Assembly: GCF_000021825.1 (NCBI RefSeq)
Contig: NC_011729.1
Span: forward strand, 4,506,969-4,538,968
DNA length: 32,000 nucleotides
DNA from: Gloeothece citriformis PCC 7424
Lineage (GTDB): Bacteria > Cyanobacteriota > Cyanobacteriia > Cyanobacteriales > Microcystaceae
Direction: 5' to 3'
Below, one piece after another: positions 3,641 to 25,707 of the stretch (positions are counted from its first letter, which is position 1; each line of letters starts with the position of its first letter). The position numbers and the translations under genes are program-made. Under the pieces are notes generated by a model that was not told the origin of the DNA, searched no databases, and saw only the letters and a program-made list of their open reading frames with translations.

Positions 3641-4534
3641 ATGCTTCGATACGCTTATTTTCCCGGCTGTGTAGCCCAAGGTGCTTGTCGAGAGCTTTAT
3701 CTATCGACGGCGGCTCTCACTCAAGCGCTCGGAATTGAGTTGGTGGAACTGAAAAAAGCTGCTTGCTGTGGATCGGGAACTTATAAAGAAGATTCTCAGT
3801 TACTCGAAGATACGGTTAATGCTCGTAATATCGCTTTAGCTGAATCCCTTAATCTCCCTTTACTGACTCATTGCAGCACTTGTCAAGGGGTCATTGGTCA
3901 TGTGGATGAACGATTAAAAGAAGCCAAAGAAGAAGACCCGGTTTATTTTGAAAAGGTCAATGATTTTTTAAAAAAAGAAAGTTGCTCTCCTTATCAAGGC
4001 TCTACAGAAGTGACTCATTTATTATGGGCAATAGTCGCTGATTTTGGCTTAGAAGCTTTGGCTCAAAAAGTGACTCGTAAGTTGAGCGGTTTAAACTGTG
4101 CTGCTTTTTATGGCTGTTATCTATTAAGAGGACAAAAGTTTTTACCCTACGATAATGTTTTCCAACCGGAATCAATGGAGAATGTGTTTCGCACGGTTGG
4201 GGCTAATCCTATCTATTATTCTGGACGGACTCAATGTTGTGGGTGGCCGCTTTCGAGTTATTCTACCCCTGAATCGTTCAAAATGGCCGGTAAACACATT
4301 CAAGAAGCCCTTGAAGCCGGTGCAGATTGTTTAGTGACCCCCTGTCCTCTATGTCATTTAAATCTCGATTCCCGTCAACCTGAAGTGGCTAAGGTAGTCG
4401 GAAAGGATTTAGGATTACCTGTGTTACACTTACCTCAATTGGTGGCGTTGGCGGTGGGAGTTTCCCCGAAAGAATTAGGATTAGATCGTCATGTCGTTTC
4501 TACTAAGCCGGTTTTAGAAAAGTTGGGATTATGA
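3641..4534 (+). CDS. HdrB/SdhE-like protein with two CCG cysteine-rich domains (heterodisulfide reductase subunit B family; possibly a succinate dehydrogenase-type subunit)
   Basis: Two CCG motifs (AACCGSGT and TQCCGWP) plus CxxC-type cysteines (FPGC, HCSTCQG, PCPLCHL), as in the HdrB/GlpC/SdhE family. Confidence 0.75.
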
Positions 4535-4996: not shown

Positions 4997-5458
4997 TTAA
5001 CCTTTCGTTGATGGCTTTTTCACTTGACGAGCCATAGCTTTAAACGTATTTAAACTAGGTCCGGGACGACGACGTGCCATAGTAGGATTAGGTAAATTTT
5101 GGCTAGCAAAACCAACCTCTTGAGGTTGAGTTTTTCCGTTTTGGCTAGAGGATGTTACTGTTGTGGGAAAGGGGGTTAATAAAGGAACTGATTCAGATTG
5201 AGTTTCTGGTTGTTTTTGTGACTTGGAAGCTGAAGCTGATTTTTTAGCTTTGATTGAAGTCTTTTTGCTTTTAGATGAGTTGGGTGCGGGTTCAGCCGGT
5301 TTTTGTTCAGCAGCAGGAGCAGGAGCAGGGGTTGAGGGCTGTTTTTCTGCTTCAGGTTGAGCAGATTTTTCAGATTTTGAAGTTTTTTCTTGAGTTTCTT
5401 CTTCTTTTAGCTCTAAAAAAAAGCCCGATTTATTTTTACCAAAAAGTTTTTTCAGCAT
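4997..5458 (-). CDS. Hypothetical low-complexity (Lys/Pro/Ala/Ser-rich) protein, likely disordered
   Basis: A 153-aa ORF with an ATG start. A short amphipathic N-terminus (MLKKLFGKNKSGFFLEL) is followed by a PAPAPAAEQKPAEP / KSKKTSIKAKK tract. No recognisable domain. Confidence 0.5.
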   Translation of the reverse strand: MLKKLFGKNKSGFFLELKEEETQEKTSKSEKSAQPEAEKQPSTPAPAPAAEQKPAEPAPNSSKSKKTSIKAKKSASASKSQKQPETQSESVPLLTPFPTTVTSSSQNGKTQPQEVGFASQNLPNPTMARRRPGPSLNTFKAMARQVKKPSTKG

Positions 5459-6232
5459 TGATTATAACTCCGAAAGAATAAACTGCAACCACAGACGATT
5501 AAATTTGACTTACTGCCATCATAGAGGCGGTAAGGTGTAGACTATCAGATATTGTACGGGAAAAGCGTGACAAAATAATTGTCACAATGGATTTATCTGC
5601 TACAGGTAAAGTAAGTATTTATCTGGTTTTTCCCCATCCCAAATTAGATCATAGTTATAACTATCACACTGTTACTATTTTATCGCTACTTAAGTCCCTA
5701 GAGTTCCCTTAACGTTAACTGTTTGTCAAGAGAACAGGCAACAGGAAAGACTTTCAAGCTTTTTACATTTCTTAATATAATGAGTTTTAATTGATGTCGA
5801 GGGACTCAATATCTTTGTTAGGAAGAGTTGGCTGGTAAGTATAAATTCTTAACAGGTCGGTCATTAAACATAAATCAACTCAATTCGGTCAAATTTTTGA
5901 CAAAATTTAATATTTAAGCCCCAGGTTAATCGACGTTAATGGACTTTTGCTTAAGTTTTATGACAAAAGCTTTACATAATTCTCATTATGCCAGTTAGCT
6001 CTTGGTCTTTATCGTCAAACTCATCAGTAAAAATTCCTAAAAGCCCCCCCAAAAATCTGTTTTAGATCTTAAAATATTATTTAGAAAAGGTAACAAAACT
6101 TTGATGTAAACAAAAAAGCGAAAGGAAAATTTCGGCAAGATTATAAAGAAAAGCCAAAGATCTATCTGATTTGACATCCAAACTTCAAACATTCTTAGAA
6201 GATTGTCTTACCCTTAAATATAGTTGTAGATC

Positions 6233-8992: not shown

Positions 8993-9034
8993 TTATTAAA
9001 AATTGAATACCATAAAACTAACCATCAATAACCC

Positions 9035-9679
9035 ATGACCAACAACTCATTAGGAATTATGCAAGGTTCAACAGTAGAAGCATCAGAAATGACGGTTGAT
9101 TATCATCACTCAGCCGAATCCACTCATCATGGACATCCGGATCATCGGATGTTTGGATTAGTTTTGTTTTTAATTGCTGAGGGAATGATCTTTTTTGGAT
9201 TATTTGCTGGCTATGTTCTTTACAAAAGTATGATGCCGGCTTGGCCTCCTGAAGGCACACCCGAAATGGAATTATTACTGCCTACAGTCAATACTGTCAT
9301 TCTGGTTTCTAGTAGTTTTGTGATGCACATGGGACAAAAAGCTATTAAAAAGAATGATGTGTCTGGTTTGCAACTGTGGTTTATTATTACCGCTATTATG
9401 GGGGCTGTGTTCTTAGTTGGACAGGGTTATGAATATACTCATACTGGTTTTGGGTTAACCACTAATTTGTTTACCAGTGCTTTTTATGCGTTGACTGGTT
9501 TTCATGGTCTTCACGTGAGTTTCGGATTGTTATTAATTCTGGCGGTTTTGTGGCGCTCTCGTGGCAAAGATCATTATTCTAGTGAATCCCATTTTGGAGT
9601 AGAAGCAGCCGAATTATACTGGCATTTTGTCGATGTTATTTGGATAATTCTGTTTGTTCTTGTTTATCTGCTCTCCTAA
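9035..9679 (+). CDS. ctaE: Cytochrome c oxidase subunit III
   Basis: A polytopic 214-aa protein with TGFHGLHVSFG and YWHFVDVIW motifs, third in the ctaCDE order. The internal ATG at 9059 (MQGSTVE) is a possible alternative start. Confidence 0.93.
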   Translation: MTNNSLGIMQGSTVEASEMTVDYHHSAESTHHGHPDHRMFGLVLFLIAEGMIFFGLFAGYVLYKSMMPAWPPEGTPEMELLLPTVNTVILVSSSFVMHMGQKAIKKNDVSGLQLWFIITAIMGAVFLVGQGYEYTHTGFGLTTNLFTSAFYALTGFHGLHVSFGLLLILAVLWRSRGKDHYSSESHFGVEAAELYWHFVDVIWIILFVLVYLLS

Positions 9680-16561: not shown

Positions 16562-16634
<73 letters not shown>

Positions 16635-17266: not shown

Positions 17267-19798
17267 GTGGGACGAGAAAAGGAACTGCACTTGCTGCATG
17301 AAGATTTAGGGAGAGGAGATTTTGTTGCGGTGACGGGAATGGGGGGAGTGGGTAAAACTGAGTTGGTGACTCAGTATGTTAAGCGGTATGGGGAAGCTTA
17401 CGGGGGGATAACTTGGTTTAATGATAGGGAAAGGGGTTTGGCGGCAGAAGTTTTCAAGTTTTTTGTTTTACAGTTAAATTATGAGATTCCCCAAGAGTTA
17501 GGGGGACAACGGTTAAGTCTTAAACAACAATTAGAGTGGTGTTGGAGTAATTATCCGGCTTGTGAGTTGCCTATTTTACTGGTTTTTGATGATGTTACTC
17601 ATTTAGATAATTTTCGGGAGGTTGTTCCTAGTGATAACCGTTTTCGAGTTTTGGTGACGACTCGACTACAATATCTAGACCCTAATTTTATTAGTGAGGT
17701 GGGTTTAGATGTTCTTTCCCCAGAAAATGAACCGGGTAAGGCGTTAGAACTGTTAGAAAGTTTGTTAGGAACGAAAGATAAGCGCGTCCAAAGAAAACCC
17801 CAAGCGGCAGCAAATATATGTCAATGTTTGGAGTTTTTGCCGTTGGGGATAATTTTAGTCGGGGGGTATTTGGTTAATGAGCCGGATTTGTCTTTAGAGA
17901 GAATGTTACAGCGCTTGCAGGAGAAAAAGTTAGCAGAGGAAGCGCTACAGCAACGGGAAAGTCTTAATAAATATGAAAGGGGAGTTAGGGCGGCTTTTGC
18001 GTTAACTTGGGAAGAACTTAATCCTTTGTCTCAACAAGTAGGAATGTTCCTCAGTTTATTCTCTCCTAAGTTGATTCATTGGGATTTGGTGGTAGGGGTT
18101 GTGTGTGACCTCTCCCCTGACCCCTCTCCTACTATGAGAGGGGAGAATATTGACCTCTCCCCCAACCCCTCTCCTACTATGAGAGGGGAGAATATTGATA
18201 TTGTTCCCCCTTCCCTTGTAGGGAAGGGGGTTAGGGGGTTAGGTCTTAATTGGTCGGAGGAGAAGTTAAACGAGGGGAAAAAGCAACTCTATAAACGAAA
18301 TTTGCTGCAACGGGAAGAAGAGAGAGAGGGATGTTATAAAATTCATGCTTTAGTAAGGTGGTTTTTACAGGAAAGGTTAGAGGAGTCAGGGGAGATAAAG
18401 GGAGTTTTAAAACAAACTTTCGCCACCGCGATGATAACTAAGGCTAAAATTATTCCTAAGCAACCCAGTGTTACAGATATTGAAAATGTTAAAGATTTTA
18501 TTCCCCATATAGAAGCATTGGCAGAGAGTTTAATTGAAGAAGCAAAGGACAAAAGACAGGGAAAGATCATTACCTCAGCATTCTTGTCTGATGAGGATAT
18601 TATCCGGCCTTTTGTGGGGGTAGGATGGTTTTATCAAGGGCAGGGGTTATATTTTTTAGCAGAACCTTGGTTAAAGCAATATGTAGATGTGCTTAAAAGT
18701 TACTTTGGAGAAGAACATCCCGATGTAGCAACCAGTTTGAACAATTTAGCCGTACTCTACCATTACCAAGGGCGCTACACTGAAGCCGAACCCCTGTACC
18801 TCCAAGCGTTGGAGATGAGAAAGCAACTGTTAGGGCAATCTCATCCTGATGTGGCAACCAGTTTGAACAATTTAGCCATTCTCTACTATTCAATGGGGCG
18901 CTACGAAAAAGCCGAACCCCTATACCTCGAAGCTTTGGAGATGTATAAGCAACTGTTGGGGCAATCTCATCCTGATGTGGCAACCAGTTTGAACAATTTA
19001 GCCATTCTCTACTATTCAATGGGGCGCTACGAAAAAGCCGAACCCCTATACCTCGAAGCTTTGGAGATGTATAAGCAACTGTTGGGGCAATCTCATCCTG
19101 ATGTGGCAACCAGTTTGAACAATTTAGCCATTCTCTACTATTCAATGGGGCGCTACGAAAAAGCCGAACCCCTATACCTCGAAGCTTTGGAGATGTATAA
19201 GCAACTGTTGGGGCAATCTCATCCTGATGTGGCAACCAGTTTGAACAATTTAGCCATTCTCTACTATTCAATGAGGCGCTACAAAAAAGCTGAACCCCTA
19301 TACCTCGAAGCTTGGGAGATGTATAAGCAACTGTTGGGGCAATCTCATCCTCTTGTCGCAACGAGCTTGAACAATTTAGCCCTTCTCTACTCTTCAATGG
19401 GGCACTACGACAAAGCTGAACCTCTGTTGCTCGAAGCTTTGGAGATGAGTAAGCAACTGTTGGGGCAATCTCATCCTGATGTGGCAACCAGTTTGAACAA
19501 TTTAGCCCTTCTCTACTCTTCAATGGGGCGCTACGAAAAAGCCGAACCTCTCTACCTCGAAGCTTTGGAGATATGTGAACGAGTCTTAGGGAATAATCAT
19601 CCTAATACGGTGGCAATTAGAGAAAATCTTGACCTTATGCAACAGGAACGTACTTCCCTTGACATCTGGAGTCATCGCTTGGGTTACGTTGTTGGAATTT
19701 TGTTAGGAATAGTGATATTACCTGTTGTAATCTTGTTAGTACCCTTTTATGTCCTGTGGTTGCTCTTTAAGCGCTTGTTTACTTTCCTGTTCCGTTAA
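17267..19798 (+). CDS. NLR-like STAND NTPase: NB-ARC domain, about 7.5 KLC-type TPR repeats and a C-terminal hydrophobic (TM) segment. The open frame actually begins at 17192.
   Basis: Walker A VAVTGMGGVGKTELV, Walker B LLVFDDV, RVLVTTR and a GLPLA-like LPLGIILVG. The track's GTG start lies inside the conserved FVGREKEL pre-P-loop motif. The 42-aa TPR units read HPDVATSLNNLAxLYxSMGRYEKAEPLYLEALEM. The C-terminus is LGYVVGILLGIVILPVVILLVPFYVLWLLF. Confidence 0.85.
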   Translation: MGREKELHLLHEDLGRGDFVAVTGMGGVGKTELVTQYVKRYGEAYGGITWFNDRERGLAAEVFKFFVLQLNYEIPQELGGQRLSLKQQLEWCWSNYPACELPILLVFDDVTHLDNFREVVPSDNRFRVLVTTRLQYLDPNFISEVGLDVLSPENEPGKALELLESLLGTKDKRVQRKPQAAANICQCLEFLPLGIILVGGYLVNEPDLSLERMLQRLQEKKLAEEALQQRESLNKYERGVRAAFALTWEELNPLSQQVGMFLSLFSPKLIHWDLVVGVVCDLSPDPSPTMRGENIDLSPNPSPTMRGENIDIVPPSLVGKGVRGLGLNWSEEKLNEGKKQLYKRNLLQREEEREGCYKIHALVRWFLQERLEESGEIKGVLKQTFATAMITKAKIIPKQPSVTDIENVKDFIPHIEALAESLIEEAKDKRQGKIITSAFLSDEDIIRPFVGVGWFYQGQGLYFLAEPWLKQYVDVLKSYFGEEHPDVATSLNNLAVLYHYQGRYTEAEPLYLQALEMRKQLLGQSHPDVATSLNNLAILYYSMGRYEKAEPLYLEALEMYKQLLGQSHPDVATSLNNLAILYYSMGRYEKAEPLYLEALEMYKQLLGQSHPDVATSLNNLAILYYSMGRYEKAEPLYLEALEMYKQLLGQSHPDVATSLNNLAILYYSMRRYKKAEPLYLEAWEMYKQLLGQSHPLVATSLNNLALLYSSMGHYDKAEPLLLEALEMSKQLLGQSHPDVATSLNNLALLYSSMGRYEKAEPLYLEALEICERVLGNNHPNTVAIRENLDLMQQERTSLDIWSHRLGYVVGILLGIVILPVVILLVPFYVLWLLFKRLFTFLFR
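18107..18245 (+). repeat. In-frame insertion of hairpin-forming short dispersed repeats inside the STAND gene
   Basis: Two 45-bp direct repeats (18107-18151 and 18152-18196) each carry the hairpin cccctctc-ctactat-gagagggg. They are followed by a perfect hairpin, cccccttccc-ttgta-gggaaggggg (18206-18230). Together they translate as DLSPDPSPTMRGENIDLSPNPSPTMRGENIDIVPPSLVGKGVRGLG. Confidence 0.85.
18710..19640 (+). repeat. 126-bp tandem repeat array (coding; TPR units)
   Basis: The motif caatctcatcctgatgtgg recurs exactly at 18836, 18962, 19088, 19214 and 19466, with a variant (caatctcatcctcttgtcg) at 19340. Units 18836-18961, 18962-19087 and 19088-19213 are identical base for base by my comparison. 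The flanking units are diverged. Confidence 0.9.
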
Positions 19799-20015: not shown

Positions 20016-20321
20016 TTAGTTTAATAAGGCTCTGACAATATCTTCCCATTCTTGATCTAATGATGTGTTAGCTGCCGGTTTCCCACTGCGACGATACCAA
20101 TAATGAGCGTTACTGATATCTCCTTCCTTTCGATGTAAATAGGCATGAACCCAAGCGCTATCACTATCATTGGCATCCTGGACAATTTCGTGCCCTCTGT
20201 CCCAATTTCCCTTTTTATCGTACCATAATCCTTGCAATGCCACCGATAACGACTTAGGACAACTAGACTCGGTTCTCAGTAATTGGATAAACTCCTCAAA
20301 ACTTAAACCAGAAACTTTCAT
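20016..20321 (-). CDS. Hypothetical small protein
   Basis: The ORF contains WVHAYLHRKEGDISNAHYWYRRSGKP. The track start at 20348 is a TTG; the ATG at 20319-20321 is preceded by AAGGAAG and is preferred. Confidence 0.55.
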   Translation of the reverse strand: MKVSGLSFEEFIQLLRTESSCPKSLSVALQGLWYDKKGNWDRGHEIVQDANDSDSAWVHAYLHRKEGDISNAHYWYRRSGKPAANTSLDQEWEDIVRALLN

Positions 20322-20418
20322 CGGTTTTTTTTCTTCCTTTGAATTCAAAGTTAATAATCTATGACTTAATCCCCTATTCTATATAGATGATGCCCAGAAA
20401 GCACATCACCCCGAAAAG

Positions 20419-21405
20419 TTGATTAACATGACTCATTTAAGTTACGCCATAACCTTATTTTTAAGCTTATTAATGACATCCCTCCCCTTCCTGTTGTTGG
20501 GAATATTCGTTTCTAGTTGGTTGCTGGTGTTTGTCGATGAGCATCAACTAACCGCTAAATTTCCCCATAATCGCATTTTAGGGGCACTCATTGGCAGTAG
20601 TTTAGGCATGATTATCCCTGTCTGTCAATATGGTAACGTACCGGTCACTAGACGGCTATTGATGCAGGGCGCTCCTCTATCGGTTGCGATCAGTTTTTTA
20701 GTGGCTAGTCCTACGGTTAATCCTATTGTTCTTTGGTTGACTTGGCAAGCTTTTCCGAATCAAGCTAGTATTCTATTCTACCGTCTTTTATTAGCTTGGC
20801 TAATTGCTTTTATTCTTGGGCTAATTTTTAGCACCCACACGGAAAAACCTTGGACGAGTGATGAATATACCTCTCCTCGCTGTTATTTATTACCCTCCGG
20901 CACTTTTTTATTGCCTTCTGAAGAGAGTCAACCTTTACATCGAGTCGGAAATTTAGTCTATGAATATAAAACGACTACTACTGCTAGAAAGTCTTTAAAA
21001 GTTGGCTTAAGTTTATTATGGCAAAATGCTGTTCAAGAAACTTTAGAATTAGGTTCTATTCTAATTATTGGATGTGCGATCGCTACTTTAGTTCAAGTAT
21101 TTCTGCCTCAAGGTCAAATTTTAAATTGGGGACAATCTCCTCCCTCTCAAATCTTGGTTATGATTTTATTGGGGTTTATTTTGTCCTTGGGGTCTCCTAA
21201 TAGCGGGTTTTTTCTGAGCTTTTTTACATCGACTTTTCTCAAAGGATCTCTGTTGAGTTTTCTTCTGTTTAGTTCGGTTGTGGATCTCAAAAGTCTGGGC
21301 TTATTATTTTTTGTCTTACGAGTTAAAGCGGTTGTTTATTTACTGATCTTGGTTTTAGAATTGACACTTTTATCCGCATTAATCTTTAATTTTTACCTCT
21401 CTTAG
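20419..21405 (+). CDS. Predicted permease (UPF0718/DUF318, ArsP-like family)
   Basis: About 8 TM segments and the family-like loop PVCQYGNVPVTRRLLMQGAP. The track start is a TTG; the ATG at 20428 (MTHLSY) is the likely true start. Confidence 0.7.
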   Translation: MINMTHLSYAITLFLSLLMTSLPFLLLGIFVSSWLLVFVDEHQLTAKFPHNRILGALIGSSLGMIIPVCQYGNVPVTRRLLMQGAPLSVAISFLVASPTVNPIVLWLTWQAFPNQASILFYRLLLAWLIAFILGLIFSTHTEKPWTSDEYTSPRCYLLPSGTFLLPSEESQPLHRVGNLVYEYKTTTTARKSLKVGLSLLWQNAVQETLELGSILIIGCAIATLVQVFLPQGQILNWGQSPPSQILVMILLGFILSLGSPNSGFFLSFFTSTFLKGSLLSFLLFSSVVDLKSLGLLFFVLRVKAVVYLLILVLELTLLSALIFNFYLS

Positions 21406-21508
21406 GTGAGCAAAATTTTCCTCCCCTTGGATACTCAAAAAAAAACTTAAGTAGTCGAACATAAATAAAGTGAATTGCGTAAACAATTGTAAAATTCCTA
21501 CATCCGTT

Positions 21509-21538
21509 CCTTCTGCCCTCTGCCTCCTGCCCCCTGCC
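21509..21538. repeat. CTGCC-rich short repeat tract (complement of the tract at 11717-11739)
   Basis: The sequence is ccttctgccctctgcctcctgccccctgcc. Confidence 0.7.
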
Positions 21539-21704
21539 TAACCTGACAGTTAAAGTTAATTTTGTCCAGGTACTTATCTGTTTTCGCTCCTCACTTCGAC
21601 TGCTTTCAAGGTAAGATTCTAGCGATCCCCAACTGTAAACTTTAGTAACAAAGTTAACCTAGCTGACCTGAAACTTGTTAGATTAATAAGTGAAGCTAAA
21701 CAAG

Positions 21705-22059
21705 CTTCCCTGGCAGATAAACTCAACCAGTTAACCTAAACCAAGAAGGAGAAAACCCTGAACAAGTTAATATCTGTCTCGTTAACCGACAATAACAGTA
21801 ATCAACTTAGATTGTCATATTTCCTCACCTTAAATGCAAGAGAGTAAGATCATAGTCAATCGACTATTAAATTAACTCTAAGTCAAACTCAACATATAAG
21901 AGGAAATCACTGGGGATCAATGCTTGATTGCTGTTATTGTGCTATCATCATTTAAAAGCTATAGATCACCCTCAATCCGAGATTAATGTAAAGATAAATT
22001 GCGATTACAGACCGAGACGATTAAAATAATGCTATATATAAGAATATAAGTTTAACAAA
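21705..22059 (+). ncRNA. Copy A of a tandemly duplicated ~355-bp unit with a conserved ~230-nt structured core (candidate ncRNA or leader; strand not established)
   Basis: Helix 1 pairs 21712-21723 with 21765-21778, with a conserved AAGGAGAAAA in the loop (21746-21755). The long-range helix pairs aataacagtaatcaa (21791-21805) with ttgattgctgttatt (21924-21938). An inner helix pairs atttcctc (21819-21826) with gaggaaat (21900-21907). Confidence 0.5.
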
Positions 22060-22400
22060 CTGACTTGGCAGATAAACTAAAACAGTAAATCCATCAATTA
22101 ATAAGGAGAAAAATCTGAATCAGTTAATATCTGTCTCCCAAATCGAAAATAACAGCAATCAATCTGAATTGTCATATTTCCTCAACTAACAAAAAAATTT
22201 AGAGAGTCATACCAAAGTCGAATCAGACTTGAGAATAACTCTAAGTAAACTCAACATATAAGAGGAAATCACTGGGAATCAATGTTTGATTGCTGTTATT
22301 GTATGGTCATGAAGCCTAAAATATTAAAGTTAATTAGGGCAACTAAGTCATGATTTGATTAAAATAGAGATAAGTAAAAGTAAACAATCTTCAGTTAGAG
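22060..22400 (+). ncRNA. Copy B of the tandem unit
   Basis: The same helices are present: 22067-22078 with 22122-22135; aataacagcaatcaa (22148-22162) with ttgattgctgttatt (22286-22300); and 22176-22183 with 22262-22269. The loops and spacer are diverged while the stems are kept. One stem position differs (t in A, c in B), changing a G-U pair to G-C. Confidence 0.5.
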
Positions 22401-22636
22401 TGATGTTAAAGTCAAGAGTCCAACCCTAGAAAGACCAGAAACAGAAAAATTAATCTTCCTGATGACGATAACTTTAATTGATAAATCGTTTAAGATTGAA
22501 GATATAGACAAAGTTACCCTAATGTGCATTTAAAGTTGATCAAGGCAGCCGGCTAAACCTTCGGCTGTAATTTGATGATTGAAGTTTACATAGATTAATC
22601 TCACTCTAGTCAGTTAAATAGTAACGTTTTGACAAC

Positions 22637-23863
22637 ATGACCTCAGAATTACTCAATAAAAATAAAGACTCTAACTATGAGCCAAAAGAGACTATCATTA
22701 AATCATCTAATGGAGTTTCTCAATTAGGGACAGACAACGAAACCCCAAATCGGTCTTTAGAACAAATTATAGACAAATTCCGCCGGACATTAGAAAATCA
22801 TAAAGGAGAACGGCAAATTGTAGTGATTCAAGATTTTCCGGATCCGGATGCGTTAGCGAGTGCTTGGGCTTATCAATTGATCGCCGAACAATACGACATC
22901 AAATGTGATATTGTTTATGCAGGGACTTTATCCCATCAAGAAAATATTGCCCTAGTGAGACTGACTGGACTCCCGGCTAAACGATGGGGAGTGTATACCC
23001 TCAAAGACAGAGACTTATCCGTTTATCAAGGATGTGTGTTAATGGATAGTCAGGGAACGAATAGTCAGTTAATGCCTCTGATTAAAGAACATAAGATTCC
23101 GGTCGTGGTCGTGGTAGACCATCACAGCAAACAGGAAGATTTAGGCGCGGAATTTATCGATTTACGGCCTCAAATCCGAGCAACGGCCACGATTTTAACT
23201 CAATATCTACAAAGTGGGATATTAAAGTTAAATAGTAATGATACTTGTCATGTTAAATGTGCTACGGCATTAATGCACGGAATTCGCTCAGATAGCAATA
23301 ATTTGTTACAAGCATTAGAAGCAGATTTTCAATCCGCCGCCTATCTCAGTCGATTTTATGATGTACAATTGCTCAATGCGGTGTTACAATCGGCTCGTTC
23401 TCGCCGGGTAATGGATATTATCGAGCGATCGCTTAAAAACCGTATGATTAAAAATAACTTCTCGATTGCTGGAGTGGGGTATTTACGCTATGATGACCGA
23501 GATGCTATCCCTCAAGCGGCAGACTTTTTAGTCACAGAAGAAAATATTCATACGGCGGTGGTGTATGGAATAGTTCATGATGAAGATGAAGGAGTTGAAT
23601 TAATTATAGGCTCATTAAGAACCACAAAATTAACTTTAGATCCGGATGAATTTCTTAAAGAAGCGTTTGGCCATGATGGACAAGGACACTTTTTTGGAGG
23701 TGGACGGTATATGGCCGGAGGGTTTGAAATTCCCGTTGGTTTTCTGGGAGGGTTTAATGATAATAATCAGTATGCCAAACTAAAATGGGAAGTTTTTGAT
23801 ACTCAAATTAAACAAAAATTGCTCCGTTTAGTTAATCCGGATGCGAGTGTTATTGAAACTTAA
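22637..23863 (+). CDS. DHH/DHHA1-family phosphoesterase (NrnA-like)
   Basis: Motif I VIQDFPDPDALASAWAY, the DHH motif VVVVDHHS, and a DHHA1-like FGGGRYMAGG near the C-terminus. Confidence 0.8.
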   Translation: MTSELLNKNKDSNYEPKETIIKSSNGVSQLGTDNETPNRSLEQIIDKFRRTLENHKGERQIVVIQDFPDPDALASAWAYQLIAEQYDIKCDIVYAGTLSHQENIALVRLTGLPAKRWGVYTLKDRDLSVYQGCVLMDSQGTNSQLMPLIKEHKIPVVVVVDHHSKQEDLGAEFIDLRPQIRATATILTQYLQSGILKLNSNDTCHVKCATALMHGIRSDSNNLLQALEADFQSAAYLSRFYDVQLLNAVLQSARSRRVMDIIERSLKNRMIKNNFSIAGVGYLRYDDRDAIPQAADFLVTEENIHTAVVYGIVHDEDEGVELIIGSLRTTKLTLDPDEFLKEAFGHDGQGHFFGGGRYMAGGFEIPVGFLGGFNDNNQYAKLKWEVFDTQIKQKLLRLVNPDASVIET

Positions 23864-23928
23864 TTTTATCGGAGGGAAAGGAAGAGTTAGAATAGGGTTT
23901 TACTAAATATTTTTAGTTAAAACCAACG

Positions 23929-24426
23929 ATGACAAAACTTTATTTAATTCGTCATGGAATAGCGGCTGACCGGGCGGACTATTCTAATGATGAAGACCGT
24001 CCTTTAACAGAAAAAGGAAAACAAAAAACTGAACAAGTCGCTAAATGTCTTCATAAAAAAGGGGTCAAATTTGATTTAATTTTAACTAGCCCCTTAGTTA
24101 GAGCCAAAGCTACCGCAGAAATTCTCTCTCAAGAGGGGTTAGGAAAAAAAATAGCAGAATTTGCCCCCCTTGCCCCGGCTGGAGACATTGAAAATTGGGT
24201 CAATTGGTGGTCAAAATGGGAGTATAATAAGGATGATAGCTCTCTTGCCCTAGTGGGTCATCAACCAGACTTAGGCAACTGGTCAGAACTTTTTGTATGG
24301 GGAAGAACCGAAGAAAAACTGATCGTCAAAAAAGCGGGGGTGATTGGAATCAGGATACTCGACAAAGATAAGCCTATCGGTAATTGTGAATTATTTTTGT
24401 TGACTTCCCCTAAGTGGTTGCTCTAA
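23929..24426 (+). CDS. sixA: Phosphohistidine phosphatase SixA
   Basis: A 165-aa histidine-phosphatase fold with LYLIRHGIA (RHG motif) and VGHQPDLG. Confidence 0.85.
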   Translation: MTKLYLIRHGIAADRADYSNDEDRPLTEKGKQKTEQVAKCLHKKGVKFDLILTSPLVRAKATAEILSQEGLGKKIAEFAPLAPAGDIENWVNWWSKWEYNKDDSSLALVGHQPDLGNWSELFVWGRTEEKLIVKKAGVIGIRILDKDKPIGNCELFLLTSPKWLL

Positions 24427-24537
24427 TGGTGTTGAAGATCTTAAAACTTTTCGGTGAAAACGAGATCAAGTAAGAGTTATAGGGTAAGTTAGCAATACTA
24501 TCTTGATCTACATCCTTGCAACGATACAGGTATAACC

Positions 24538-25707
24538 ATGACGACCGTTTGTGAATATCGCCCAGGCTTAGAAGGCATTCCTGCTGCACAATCAAGTATT
24601 AGCTACGTTGACGGACTCAGAGGGATTTTAGAATATCGGGGCATTAATATTGAAGAACTCGCTAAACATAGTAGCTTTTTAGAAACCACTTATTTACTCA
24701 TTTGGGGTGAACTTCCCACTAAAGTAGAATTAGAAGAGTTTGAAACTGAAATTCGCTATCACCGCCGGATAAAATATCACATTCGGGATATGATGAAATG
24801 TTTCCCCGAAACCGGACATCCAATGGACGCATTACAAACCAGTGCGGCGGCGTTAGGGTTATTTTACTCCCGTCGTGCCCTCGATGATCCTGCTTATATT
24901 CGTCAGGCAGTCGTGCGGTTAGTGGCTAAAATTCCCACAATGGTGGCGGCTTTTCATTTGATGAGAAGAGGCAATGATCCGATTCAGCCAAATGATAATT
25001 TAGATTATGCCGCGAATTTCTTGTATATGCTCACAGAGCGTAAACCCTCTGATTTAGCGGCTCATATATTTGATGTTTGTCTGACGCTTCATGCCGAACA
25101 TACCATGAATGCGTCTACTTTCTCTGCTATGGTAACCGCTTCTACCTTAACTGATCCTTATGGGGTCATTGCTTCTGCTGTAGGAACATTAGCAGGGCCT
25201 TTACATGGGGGAGCTAATGAAGAAGTATTATTTATGCTCGAAGAAATAGGCACTATTGATAATGTTCGCGCTTATGTGGATGACTGTATTGAGCATAAAA
25301 AGAAAATTATGGGGTTTGGACACCGGGTTTATAAGGTAAAAGATCCCCGTGCCACCATTTTACAAAATTTGGCGATGCAGTTATTTGAACAGATGGGGCA
25401 TGATGAATATTATGCTATGGCTCTTGAGTTAGAAAAAGTGGTAGAGGAAAGGTTAGGTCATAAGGGAATTTACGCTAATGTCGATTTTTATTCGGGTTTA
25501 GTCTATCGAAAACTGGGAATTCCGACAGATTTATTTACGCCTCTTTTTGCCATTTCTAGAGTTGCTGGTTGGTTAGCTCACTGGAAAGAACAATTAGGAG
25601 AAAATCGGATTTTCCGTCCGACTCAAATTTATACCGGTCGTCACGATACCGTTTATATTCCCATTGAAAAACGCTTAACCGCAGTTACCCGTAATGGGTA
25701 TCAATAA
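24538..25707 (+). CDS. gltA: Citrate synthase
   Basis: A 389-aa protein with LHAEH, GPLHGGANE and the GFGHRVYKVKDPR signature. Confidence 0.95.
   Translation: MTTVCEYRPGLEGIPAAQSSISYVDGLRGILEYRGINIEELAKHSSFLETTYLLIWGELPTKVELEEFETEIRYHRRIKYHIRDMMKCFPETGHPMDALQTSAAALGLFYSRRALDDPAYIRQAVVRLVAKIPTMVAAFHLMRRGNDPIQPNDNLDYAANFLYMLTERKPSDLAAHIFDVCLTLHAEHTMNASTFSAMVTASTLTDPYGVIASAVGTLAGPLHGGANEEVLFMLEEIGTIDNVRAYVDDCIEHKKKIMGFGHRVYKVKDPRATILQNLAMQLFEQMGHDEYYAMALELEKVVEERLGHKGIYANVDFYSGLVYRKLGIPTDLFTPLFAISRVAGWLAHWKEQLGENRIFRPTQIYTGRHDTVYIPIEKRLTAVTRNGYQ

Follow-up and report, generated by a model that had tools for sequence, protein, structure and literature searches.

The stretch of DNA analysed here, referred to below as the window, comprises 32,000 nucleotides (nt) of Gloeothece citriformis PCC 7424 (RefSeq contig NC_011729.1, positions 4,506,969 to 4,538,968), and coordinates given without a locus label refer to it. 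On its forward (+) strand lies a gene for a YraQ/ArsP_1-type (UPF0718) permease (20428-21405; Pfam PF03773, E = 2e-66), which is followed by the interval 21406-22636 and then by a gene for a DHH/NrnA-type protein (22637-23863); both proteins are 100% identical to proteins of PCC 7424. In this interval the original prediction had placed a tandem pair of units forming a structured RNA that matched no known family, and this is supported by homologues in eight other lineages, by + strand covariation and by the lack of any match in Rfam 15. The units belong to a previously undescribed family of structured small RNAs (sRNAs) that is genetically tied to the 3' side of the permease gene and most likely has a regulatory role, for which we infer a mechanism below. 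We consider, with a probability of roughly 0.55, that each unit of ~355 bp is a complete, independently promoted gene for a + strand structured RNA of ~255 nt, noncoding or at most marginally coding.

As had been claimed, the interval 21406-22636 holds no open reading frame (ORF) of 60 or more amino acids on either strand, the largest being of 33-44. The two direct copies of the unit span 21622-22311 with start-to-start spacings of 355, 357 and 362 bp; they can be aligned over ~235-265 nt, with an 88-nt block that is 82% identical and a 56-nt block that is 96% identical, and their loops are diverged, in agreement with the description given earlier. The RNA of copy A is predicted to extend from 21691 to 21945 (+ strand, ~255 nt; covariance-model match of 230 bits at 21686-21949) and that of copy B from 22045 to 22307 (+ strand, ~262 nt; 192 bits at 22041-22311). 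The extent first proposed for the pair falls short at its upstream limit, since the conserved promoter region of copy A begins at ~21622, outside the coordinates then given. What had been taken for the end of a partial third unit before copy A belongs to unit A itself: it is the 5' hairpin, P0, which can be aligned with its counterpart in unit B and carries compensatory changes. After copy B, what remains of a third unit is a weak and degenerate trace of its promoter region at 22357-22387 (+), a direct repeat with 71% identity over 31 nt to 22019-22049, and neither the covariance model nor nhmmer found an RNA body after it.

A homologue search and an Rfam scan had been named as checks with the original prediction. 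The former returned 13 copies (nhmmer E = 1e-43 to 1e-87) in nine lineages, namely two Gloeothece, Pleurocapsa, Hydrococcus, Aphanothece, Moorena and three metagenomic lineages, each with one to three tandem copies. In Gloeothece verrucosa PCC 7822 (locus L001) the synteny of permease, gap and DHH gene is the same as in PCC 7424, and a tandem pair lies at 8994-9255 and 9317-9581. For the other homologues, contigs carrying permease orthologues were fetched and examined for the element, and those bearing it are from Pleurocapsa (L012), the metagenomic lineages (L015, L019 and L020), Hydrococcus rivularis (L021), Aphanothece sacrum (L023) and a Moorena metagenome-assembled genome (MAG; L027), the last with three tandem copies. 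All of the examined permease orthologues with 54-82% identity had the element downstream on the same strand, except that of locus L004. The copy of the Pleurocapsa MAG was found by scanning genome contigs for an invariant 20-mer and lies directly downstream of the permease orthologue. Copies within a genome are 78%, 89% and 82-96% identical, as compared with 57-75% between lineages, so that the arrays either arose by lineage-specific duplication or are homogenized.

A covariance model built from the 13 copies recovered exactly those 13 (192-274 bits) in 160 kb of loci, with no further copies apart from weak reverse-strand echoes. The scans of sequence collections required exact patterns. In the genome collection, the 20-mer gave one real match (Pleurocapsa) and four chance matches, and it did not return PCC 7424 or PCC 7822 although each contains the pattern twice; these stretches were probably masked, so that the scan gives no genome-wide copy count for PCC 7424. 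No further copies were found among plasmids, in metagenomes (one chance match) or in viral contigs (20 chance matches).

The alignment of the 13 copies supports a fold consisting of a 5' hairpin P0, a second stem P1, a 12-nt linker, the long-range helix P2 of 15 bp, P3, P4, a large internal loop, P5 and the hairpin P6. P1 has an invariant base, GGCAGA/UCUGUC, with an invariant G.U pair, and weaker distal helices that are just 74-83% paired and tentative; its apical region presents AGGAGAAAA. P4 is formed by AUUUCCUC/GAGGAAAU, and P5 by GGAG/CUCC, which covaries to AGAG/CUCU. In copy A the helices lie at 21692-21697/21703-21708 (P0), 21712-21717/21773-21778 (base of P1), 21791-21805/21924-21938 (P2), 21810-21817/21911-21918 (P3), 21819-21826/21900-21907 (P4), 21841-21844/21876-21879 (P5) and 21852-21857/21862-21867 (P6), followed by a U-rich tail. 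In copy B they lie at 22047-22052/22058-22063 (P0), 22067-22072/22130-22135 (base of P1), 22148-22162/22286-22300 (P2), 22167-22174/22273-22280 (P3), 22176-22183/22262-22269 (P4), 22203-22206/22239-22242 (P5) and 22215-22219/22226-22230 (P6). A loop resembling a Shine-Dalgarno (SD) sequence is found at 21746-21755 (+) in copy A, where it reads AAGGAGAAAA, and at 22103-22112 (+) in copy B. The 15-bp long-range helix that had been proposed is therefore present in both copies at the positions of P2, as are the further pairings ATTTCCTC/GAGGAAAT and GGCAGA.../...TCTGTC, and the T/C substitution within the long helix does keep pairing, as G.U in one copy and G-C in the other. In contrast, the 'conserved single-stranded block' aactctaagt(c)aaactcaacatataa is conserved between the two copies of the window only; the family keeps just ACUC, which is paired in P5 (CUCU with AGAG).

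When folded on the + strand and compared with dinucleotide shuffles, copies A and B gave z-scores of -4.4 and -4.6, respectively, and none of 200 shuffles folded as well. Over the 65 pairs of the alignment (832 cells), 90.0% of the cells held standard pairs, as compared with 32.5-47.1% when the partners were slid by one to three columns. Changes on both sides were seen at 15 pairs, while shuffles gave 8.0 +/- 1.7 and none of 500 reached the observed value, so the compensatory changes whose absence from homologues had been named as refuting the original prediction are present. The covariation score was 0.166 vs 0.119. A 10-copy alignment gave a similar picture, with 90-93% of cells paired and 13-15 double-change pairs across the two alignments. 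Most of the compensatory changes fall in P3 and P6, and one position of P2 runs through the series U-A, U.G and C-G. Both strands are able to fold, and an RNA from the minus strand was considered and rejected: G.U cells outnumber A.C cells by 64 to 13, indicating that selection acts on the + strand RNA.

This asymmetry also bears on whether the unit could be a DNA-level repeat, such as a miniature inverted-repeat transposable element (MITE)-like mobile element with terminal inverted repeats, or else a decayed gene fragment, either of which had been named as a refuting outcome. Inverted repeats of 15-17 bp do flank ~120 bp, and ~18 nt of the permease coding sequence (CDS) are similar to the 3' arm of P2, possibly as a vestige of partial duplication. 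On the other hand, the element occupies the same locus and orientation in nine lineages with no other copy in 160 kb, the 20-mer occurs in a single cyanobacterial contig of the collection (the permease-linked one of Pleurocapsa, PCC 7424 and PCC 7822 not being returned), no copy was found in plasmids or viral contigs, and outside the short segment nhmmer detects nothing similar to the permease gene. Since the G.U/A.C asymmetry and the compensatory changes denote selection at the RNA level, we regard a mobile or decayed element as extremely improbable.

Rfam 15 (4227 models) was searched at the gathering score and at E-values up to 10. At the gathering threshold the whole window gave no match to the element, the sole match being a tRNA gene at 16562-16634 (72 bits). 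At E up to 10, the region 21400-22650 returned only noise from eukaryotic small nucleolar and long noncoding RNA models, and the Pleurocapsa, Aphanothece and Moorena loci (L012, L023 and L027) returned nothing at the element, so that across four loci no family was matched. The Moorena locus gave, on the minus strand between its permease and a Proton_antipo_M gene (L027 2516-2561), a separate sub-threshold match to the Na+ riboswitch (DUF1646) aptamer that is probably noise (E = 0.74; 22.7 bits, the gathering score being 40.5). Our literature search found no account of sRNAs of these strains or of this permease subfamily in cyanobacteria.

Upstream of the RNA body, all 13 copies carry the motif TGTAAA-N5/6-T(T/G/A)NCA, most commonly as ATGTAAACTTTAGTTGCAA, followed by a spacer of 26-28 nt (13/13) whose sequence is free and which ends at the -10 hexamer. 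An extended -10-like box, TGn-TAnAYW, is likewise present before every copy, including the second and third members of arrays, and the invariant GGCAGA lies 27-28 nt past this box in 12 of the 13. In unit A, the upstream conserved block is found at 21622-21651 (+; GCGATCCCC-N2-CTGTAAACTTTAGTAACAA) and constitutes a candidate regulator-binding site, and the box is TGT TAGATT at 21676-21684 (+), with a start predicted near 21691 from sequence conservation only. In unit B, the motif lies at 21987-22004 (+; TGTAAAGATAAATTGCGA) and the box, TGC TATATA, at 22030-22038 (+). If transcription starts ~7 nt past the -10 hexamer (~21691 in copy A), P0 would stand at the very 5' end of the RNA. Because motif, spacer, -10-like box and RNA body are conserved in every copy, the duplicated unit appears to be a complete gene, and of the options first raised for this RNA an sRNA fits best, since a conserved promoter-like region stands before every unit, also before the second and third ones of an array. 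A search of 153 kb of cyanobacterial loci met with no other occurrence of the upstream motif and gave no hint of a regulon. Known regulator sites were considered by eye against their consensus sequences (GTA-N8-TAC for NtcA, TGTGA-N6-TCACA for CRP), and the spacings of the motif did not fit an NtcA, CRP or RpaB HLR1 site. GATCCC precedes the motif in the first copies of arrays. As a related observation, a HIP1-like GCGATC(C/G)CC stands directly upstream of the TGTAAAC motif in first array copies (21622-21630 in the window, ~7040-7050 in L015, and the equivalents in L020 and L021) and not in second or third ones; it may be part of the regulatory site or merely the cyanobacterial HIP1 palindrome.

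The permease gene is the constant upstream neighbour of the RNA in 9/9 lineages, the 5' hairpin of the RNA lying 70-286 nt past its stop codon on the same strand. In contrast, the next gene downstream differs among lineages, being a DHH, ferrochelatase, VWA, GAF-PHY (opposite strand) or TP_methylase (opposite strand) gene, so the element is tied to the permease and not to the DHH gene. There is thus no constant same-strand gene downstream, as would be found for a 5' leader or riboswitch, and the suggestion that the units are a cis-leader of the DHH gene is excluded, while the constant same-strand position just after one gene is that of a 3'-untranslated region (3'-UTR)-type sRNA.

The same linkage would be expected if the element were purely a cis-acting part of the permease mRNA's 3'-UTR, acting on stability, termination or long-range 5'-3' pairing, and not an independent RNA, in which case the 'promoter' would be something else. 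No canonical terminator was found between permease and element in the window, the permease stop codon and the upstream motif are only 11 nt apart in Pleurocapsa, a gap short enough to make read-through from the permease likely there, and the RNA shows complementarity to the permease CDS (see below), all of which would suit such an element. It is harder to reconcile with second and third copies that carry the motif, the spacer, the -10-like box and a fixed geometry to the 5' hairpin, or with the weak hairpin and U-run structures that follow the permease stop codon in L015 and Hydrococcus, and the tandem amplification of whole units is difficult to explain on this basis. We therefore consider a purely cis-acting role unlikely.

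As for the permease itself, it has a distant, sub-threshold similarity (73 bits vs a cutoff of 300) to the SO_0444 Cu/Zn efflux transporters, whose role was assigned from fitness data (PMC3219624). From this similarity one may guess that it exports a metal or metalloid. Reports of selenoprotein relatives of SO_0444 prompted us to consider a selenocysteine insertion sequence (SECIS), an idea that was rejected, the permease stop codon being TAG or TAA and not UGA.

An open frame, designated ORF1, begins shortly after the SD-like loop, at 21758-21847 (+) in copy A, where its putative translation consists of CTG, 28 codons and TAA, and at 22115-22189 (+) in copy B. In the 12 other copies it comprises CTG, 23 codons and a stop, so that the stop falls at codon 25 in 12/13, as TAA, TGA or TAG. 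The frame follows the 3' strand of P1 and then the 5' strands of P2 to P4. It is open in all 13 copies, with no in-frame stop as compared with 4.66 expected by column shuffle, while frames 2 and 3 match the null (19 stops vs 19.5 and 34 vs 32.9, respectively); the nominal P of 0.0004 ignores relatedness, and a cruder count of stop sites per frame gives P of ~0.03-0.06. Gap columns number 0/75 in ORF1 and 9/70 in the region of the partner 3' strands. An SD-like box (AAGGAG or UAGGAG) precedes the invariant CUG by 6-7 nt, and in Moorena AGGAG is changed to GAGGU, which is still SD-like.

These features would be expected of a small mRNA or dual-function RNA in which the SD-like loop is a ribosome-binding site and the CUG-initiated ORF of 24 codons is translated, the output being either the peptide or, as is more plausible, translation itself, which would unzip P1 to P4, with the 3' half serving as a fold-back inhibitor. 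For this interpretation count the strong SD 6-7 nt before an invariant CUG, still SD-like in Moorena, the frame kept open in 13/13 against null off-frames, and the fixed stop without gap columns. Against it, none of the 13 copies has an ATG, GTG or TTG in range of ORF1, in-frame stops lie upstream, and CUG never alternates with a better start. The synonymous fraction in ORF1 (18%) lies between those of the off-frames (11% and 21%), giving no sign of purifying selection on amino acids; codon positions 1, 2 and 3 vary alike where unpaired (8/10, 8/9 and 9/9), and the conserved residues coincide exactly with helix strands, so that variability tracks RNA pairing and not codon position. The predicted peptide is short, polar and of low complexity, and the limits of the P values stated above apply here as well. 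ORF1 thus shows the constancy of frame and stop position of a small protein-coding gene and lacks its canonical start and amino-acid selection. A small or dual-function mRNA is possible but on the whole unlikely, and translation of ORF1 is to us a serious, minority expectation; if ribosomes use the frame, it is the act of translation that would matter and not the peptide.

A second frame, ORF2 (M[LF]DCCYC...), which starts just before the 3' arm of P2, was rejected as a by-product of the helix arm, having no start codon in L019, L020 and Aphanothece and unrelated tails. A transfer-messenger RNA, which also carries an ORF without a start, was rejected because ARAGORN finds none.

The original prediction had also raised a type I toxin-antitoxin-like mRNA, which would here be a structured mRNA for a toxin, inhibited by folding back on itself and amplified in tandem. 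A small frame inside long-range helices and a patchily distributed, intergenic, multi-copy tandem locus recall such systems. The sole conserved frame, however, encodes a polar peptide, neither hydrophobic nor membrane-spanning, without a canonical start codon, and the SD is exposed rather than sequestered; the window's minus-strand promoter-like matches fall on sequence that is variable between lineages, the G.U statistics indicate selection on one strand only, and a single housekeeping-type gene accompanies the locus in strict synteny across orders. This makes a toxin-antitoxin locus very improbable.

The architecture of P2 to P6, an interrupted rod of ~45 bp with a large internal loop between P4 and P5, invites the question of whether the RNA binds a protein or RNA polymerase instead of pairing with other RNAs, either as a 6S-like rod with a central bubble or as a decoy whose GGA/SD-like motifs would titrate ribosomes or an RNA-binding protein. 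In 6S RNA a long stem closes a rod that contains a large internal loop and ends in a stem-loop, and the element resembles it in this layout and in size (~165 nt for P2-P6). Its helix sequences are, in addition, more conserved than pairing alone would require, with 6/6 invariant pairs in P1a and 9/15 in P2. It differs from 6S RNA in its variable bubble, its extra 5' domain (P0 and P1), its patchy distribution and its tandem copies, and neither 6S nor any other Rfam model matched it at E up to 10. With poorly conserved bubble sequences and no candidate protein partner linked to the locus, a protein-binding RNA of this kind seems distinctly improbable.

A candidate target of the RNA lies in the permease CDS at 20515-20535 (+; +88 to +108; AGTTGGTTGCTGGTGTTTGTC / AGUUGGUUGCUGGUGUUUGUC), within the SSWLLVFV stretch at codons ~30-36. 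This segment resembles the 3' arm of P2 and is therefore complementary to the 5' arm. In PCC 7424 the duplex (duplexfold) has a predicted energy of -22.2 kcal/mol and is the best of 274 windows of the mRNA and of 15,568 window positions on both strands. The site recurs at the homologous position in 6/9 lineages with duplexes of -19 to -22 kcal/mol, about as stable as the RNA's own P2. It is the best site of the whole permease mRNA in five lineages; among all windows of the locus on both strands it ranks first in three lineages (PCC 7424, PCC 7822 and Aphanothece) and within the top few in three more (Pleurocapsa, L015 and Hydrococcus). The arm of the Aphanothece RNA has an A-to-C change that breaks its own P2 pair and matches a U-to-G change in the permease. 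Three other pairings were tried and rejected: the whole RNA with the permease translation-initiation region gave z-scores of -1.7 to +1.1 and no common site; the P0 loop is complementary to a conserved AAGCTTGTTT in the permease 5' region only in the close relatives L015 and Hydrococcus; and complementarity between the SD-like loop and the CDS near +830 is a matter of codon choice, seen in only two to three lineages.

Taken together, these results lead us to favour a regulatory sRNA with its own promoter that acts on or with the permease transcript, and the following points weigh against this interpretation. Locus L004, a Gloeothece-like metagenomic contig whose permease is 81% identical and whose permease-DHH synteny is the same, is without the RNA, as are Crocosphaera subtropica ATCC 51142 and Microcystis, which have more distant permease orthologues; there the gaps after the permease measure 300, 97 and 119 bp, respectively, and the RNA is thus dispensable for the permease. 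Complementarity to the permease is weak or absent in L019, L020 and Moorena, and the target segment is conserved in the RNA-less L004 (-18.4 kcal/mol with the arm), so that codon constraint together with one inherited coincidence could explain it; the complementarity may be a coincidence that was inherited, or a relic of how the RNA arose. In the folded RNA the pairing arm is normally tied up in P2, and the one unpaired block that is invariant is rich in purines and SD-like, an unusual property for a seed that acts by base pairing. No canonical + strand intrinsic terminator was found in the window; the tail after P2 is U-rich, with three to seven U in 10 nt and UUUUU in the Moorena copies. The alignment is shallow, its 13 copies from nine lineages having an effective number of 2.18, and the start, the 3' end and even the expression of the RNA are predictions.

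In the mechanism that we propose, the regulatory sRNA would be transcribed from its own regulated promoter and, in some lineages, probably also by read-through from the permease in the manner of a 3'-UTR-type sRNA, and it would act on the permease transcript or in concert with it. Two pairings of about equal stability would be open to the 5' arm of P2, one that closes the rod and one with permease codons ~30-36, and the latter, made inside the coding region, could control the stability or translation of the mRNA. Binding of a 30S subunit or ribosome to the SD-like loop, possibly with low-level translation of the 24-codon frame, may open the rod and decide which pairing forms, and tandem duplication would raise the dosage. 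A more specific version, which we put forward as speculative and rather unlikely, is a translation-gated riboregulator: the ribosome would load at the exposed SD-like loop and read the weak CUG-initiated frame of 24 codons, whose peptide is irrelevant and whose length and stop are fixed by travel along the 5' strands of P1 to P4, thereby unzipping the rod and switching the arms of P2 between self-pairing and the permease mRNA.

The closest organizational parallel is the NsiR1 array, a head-to-tail cyanobacterial small-RNA gene with a promoter per repeat and a fixed neighbour gene. NsiR1 is a HetR-dependent RNA of 60 nt encoded near hetF by tandem repeats, each with its own promoter, in heterocystous cyanobacteria; Anabaena sp. 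PCC 7120 has 12 copies, and further heterocystous genomes have several (PMC4030482, citing Ionescu et al. 2010). As in NsiR1, repeats have their own promoter-like region, which is seen in the second and third copies of PCC 7424, PCC 7822 and Moorena. The present RNA differs in being ~255 nt long with six helices, in its one to three copies, in its unicellular, baeocytous and Moorena hosts, in its permease neighbour and in its upstream motif; with no Rfam family matching the element and with length, hosts and neighbour all different, homology to NsiR1 is not indicated.

Among other bacterial sRNAs, the type I 3'-UTR sRNAs with their own promoter (such as DapZ and MicL) and the CDS-targeting pair MicC-ompD are Hfq-dependent enterobacterial systems with RNAs of 80-110 nt, single-stranded seeds and canonical terminators. 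The element is similar to DapZ and MicL in that the RNA gene and the protein gene at whose 3' end it lies share a strand, with a promoter near the end of the protein gene or overlapping it, and to MicC-ompD in having a candidate pairing site within the coding region, past the initiation window; unlike all three, its candidate seed is locked in a 15-bp helix, its proposed target is the host gene, and no canonical terminator was seen. Dual-function sRNAs and related mRNAs (SgrS/SgrT, RNAIII/hld, SR1/SR1P and hok-type mRNAs) use AUG, GUG or UUG starts and encode peptides under amino-acid selection or hydrophobic toxins. They share with the element a small frame with a good SD in a structured RNA, covered by long-range pairing, while the element differs in having CUG in every copy and an unconstrained peptide sequence.

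Several observations were made in the surroundings of the RNA. Between the permease stop codon and the RNA promoter, 21505-21548 is a C-rich run of short CTGCC-type repeats (ccttctgccctctgcctcctgccccctgcctaacctgac), with nothing comparable in the short gap of the other lineages. A hairpin, CAGCCG-(10-nt loop)-CGGCTG, lies at 22545-22580, ~65 nt before the DHH start codon, with TAATTTGATGATTG after it, and may act either as a terminator for transcripts reading through from the array or as part of the 5' region of the DHH gene. A conserved block, TAAGCTTGTTTTTCAAGCC-GATGCTCGA, with a small hairpin (GCTTG/CAAGC) precedes the permease start codon by ~30-58 nt in Pleurocapsa (L012 ~5188-5218), L015 (~5942-5972), Hydrococcus (L021 ~3942-3972) and L019 (~5940-5975), and may represent the promoter or 5' UTR of the permease; in the Gloeothece lineages it is another block that is conserved upstream. 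The 620-bp gap upstream of the permease in the window holds an ORF of 110 amino acids (20016-20348, minus strand) with no Pfam or NCBIfam match. A large NB-ARC + TPR (STAND-type) gene adjoins the permease in both Gloeothece genomes (17267-19798 in the window; L001 4581-7409), and in Microcystis an NB-ARC + TPR gene lies near the permease on the other side and strand (L025 5085-7592). In Hydrococcus (L021 1-2234, compared with 22637-25707 of the window), the trio of DHH, His_Phos and citrate synthase genes stands upstream of the permease, while in Gloeothece it follows the RNA array, so that the neighbourhood is rearranged around a constant pair of permease and RNA. In the Pleurocapsa MAG, a long run of CAGTAAT heptamers lies ~30 nt after the RNA, at the end of one contig (L006 1-60, equivalent to L012 after ~6575).

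The analysis adds to the known RNAs a well-supported structured family that is absent from Rfam 15, together with its gene anatomy of a candidate regulator site, an extended -10-like box and six helices, in host groups (Gloeothece, Pleurocapsa, Hydrococcus, Aphanothece and Moorena) for which our literature search found no small-RNA description of the locus. The invariant linkage to the permease gives a testable functional context both for the RNA and for an uncharacterized permease subfamily, and the recurrent tandem amplification suggests that dosage matters. Two features are unusual, a conserved frame without a start codon that runs along one side of the helices and a mimic of a helix arm in the neighbouring permease gene, and in combination they could reveal a coupling of translation, RNA refolding and target pairing. 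If the translation-gated version is true, it would couple expression of the permease to translational status or to a metal-responsive promoter.

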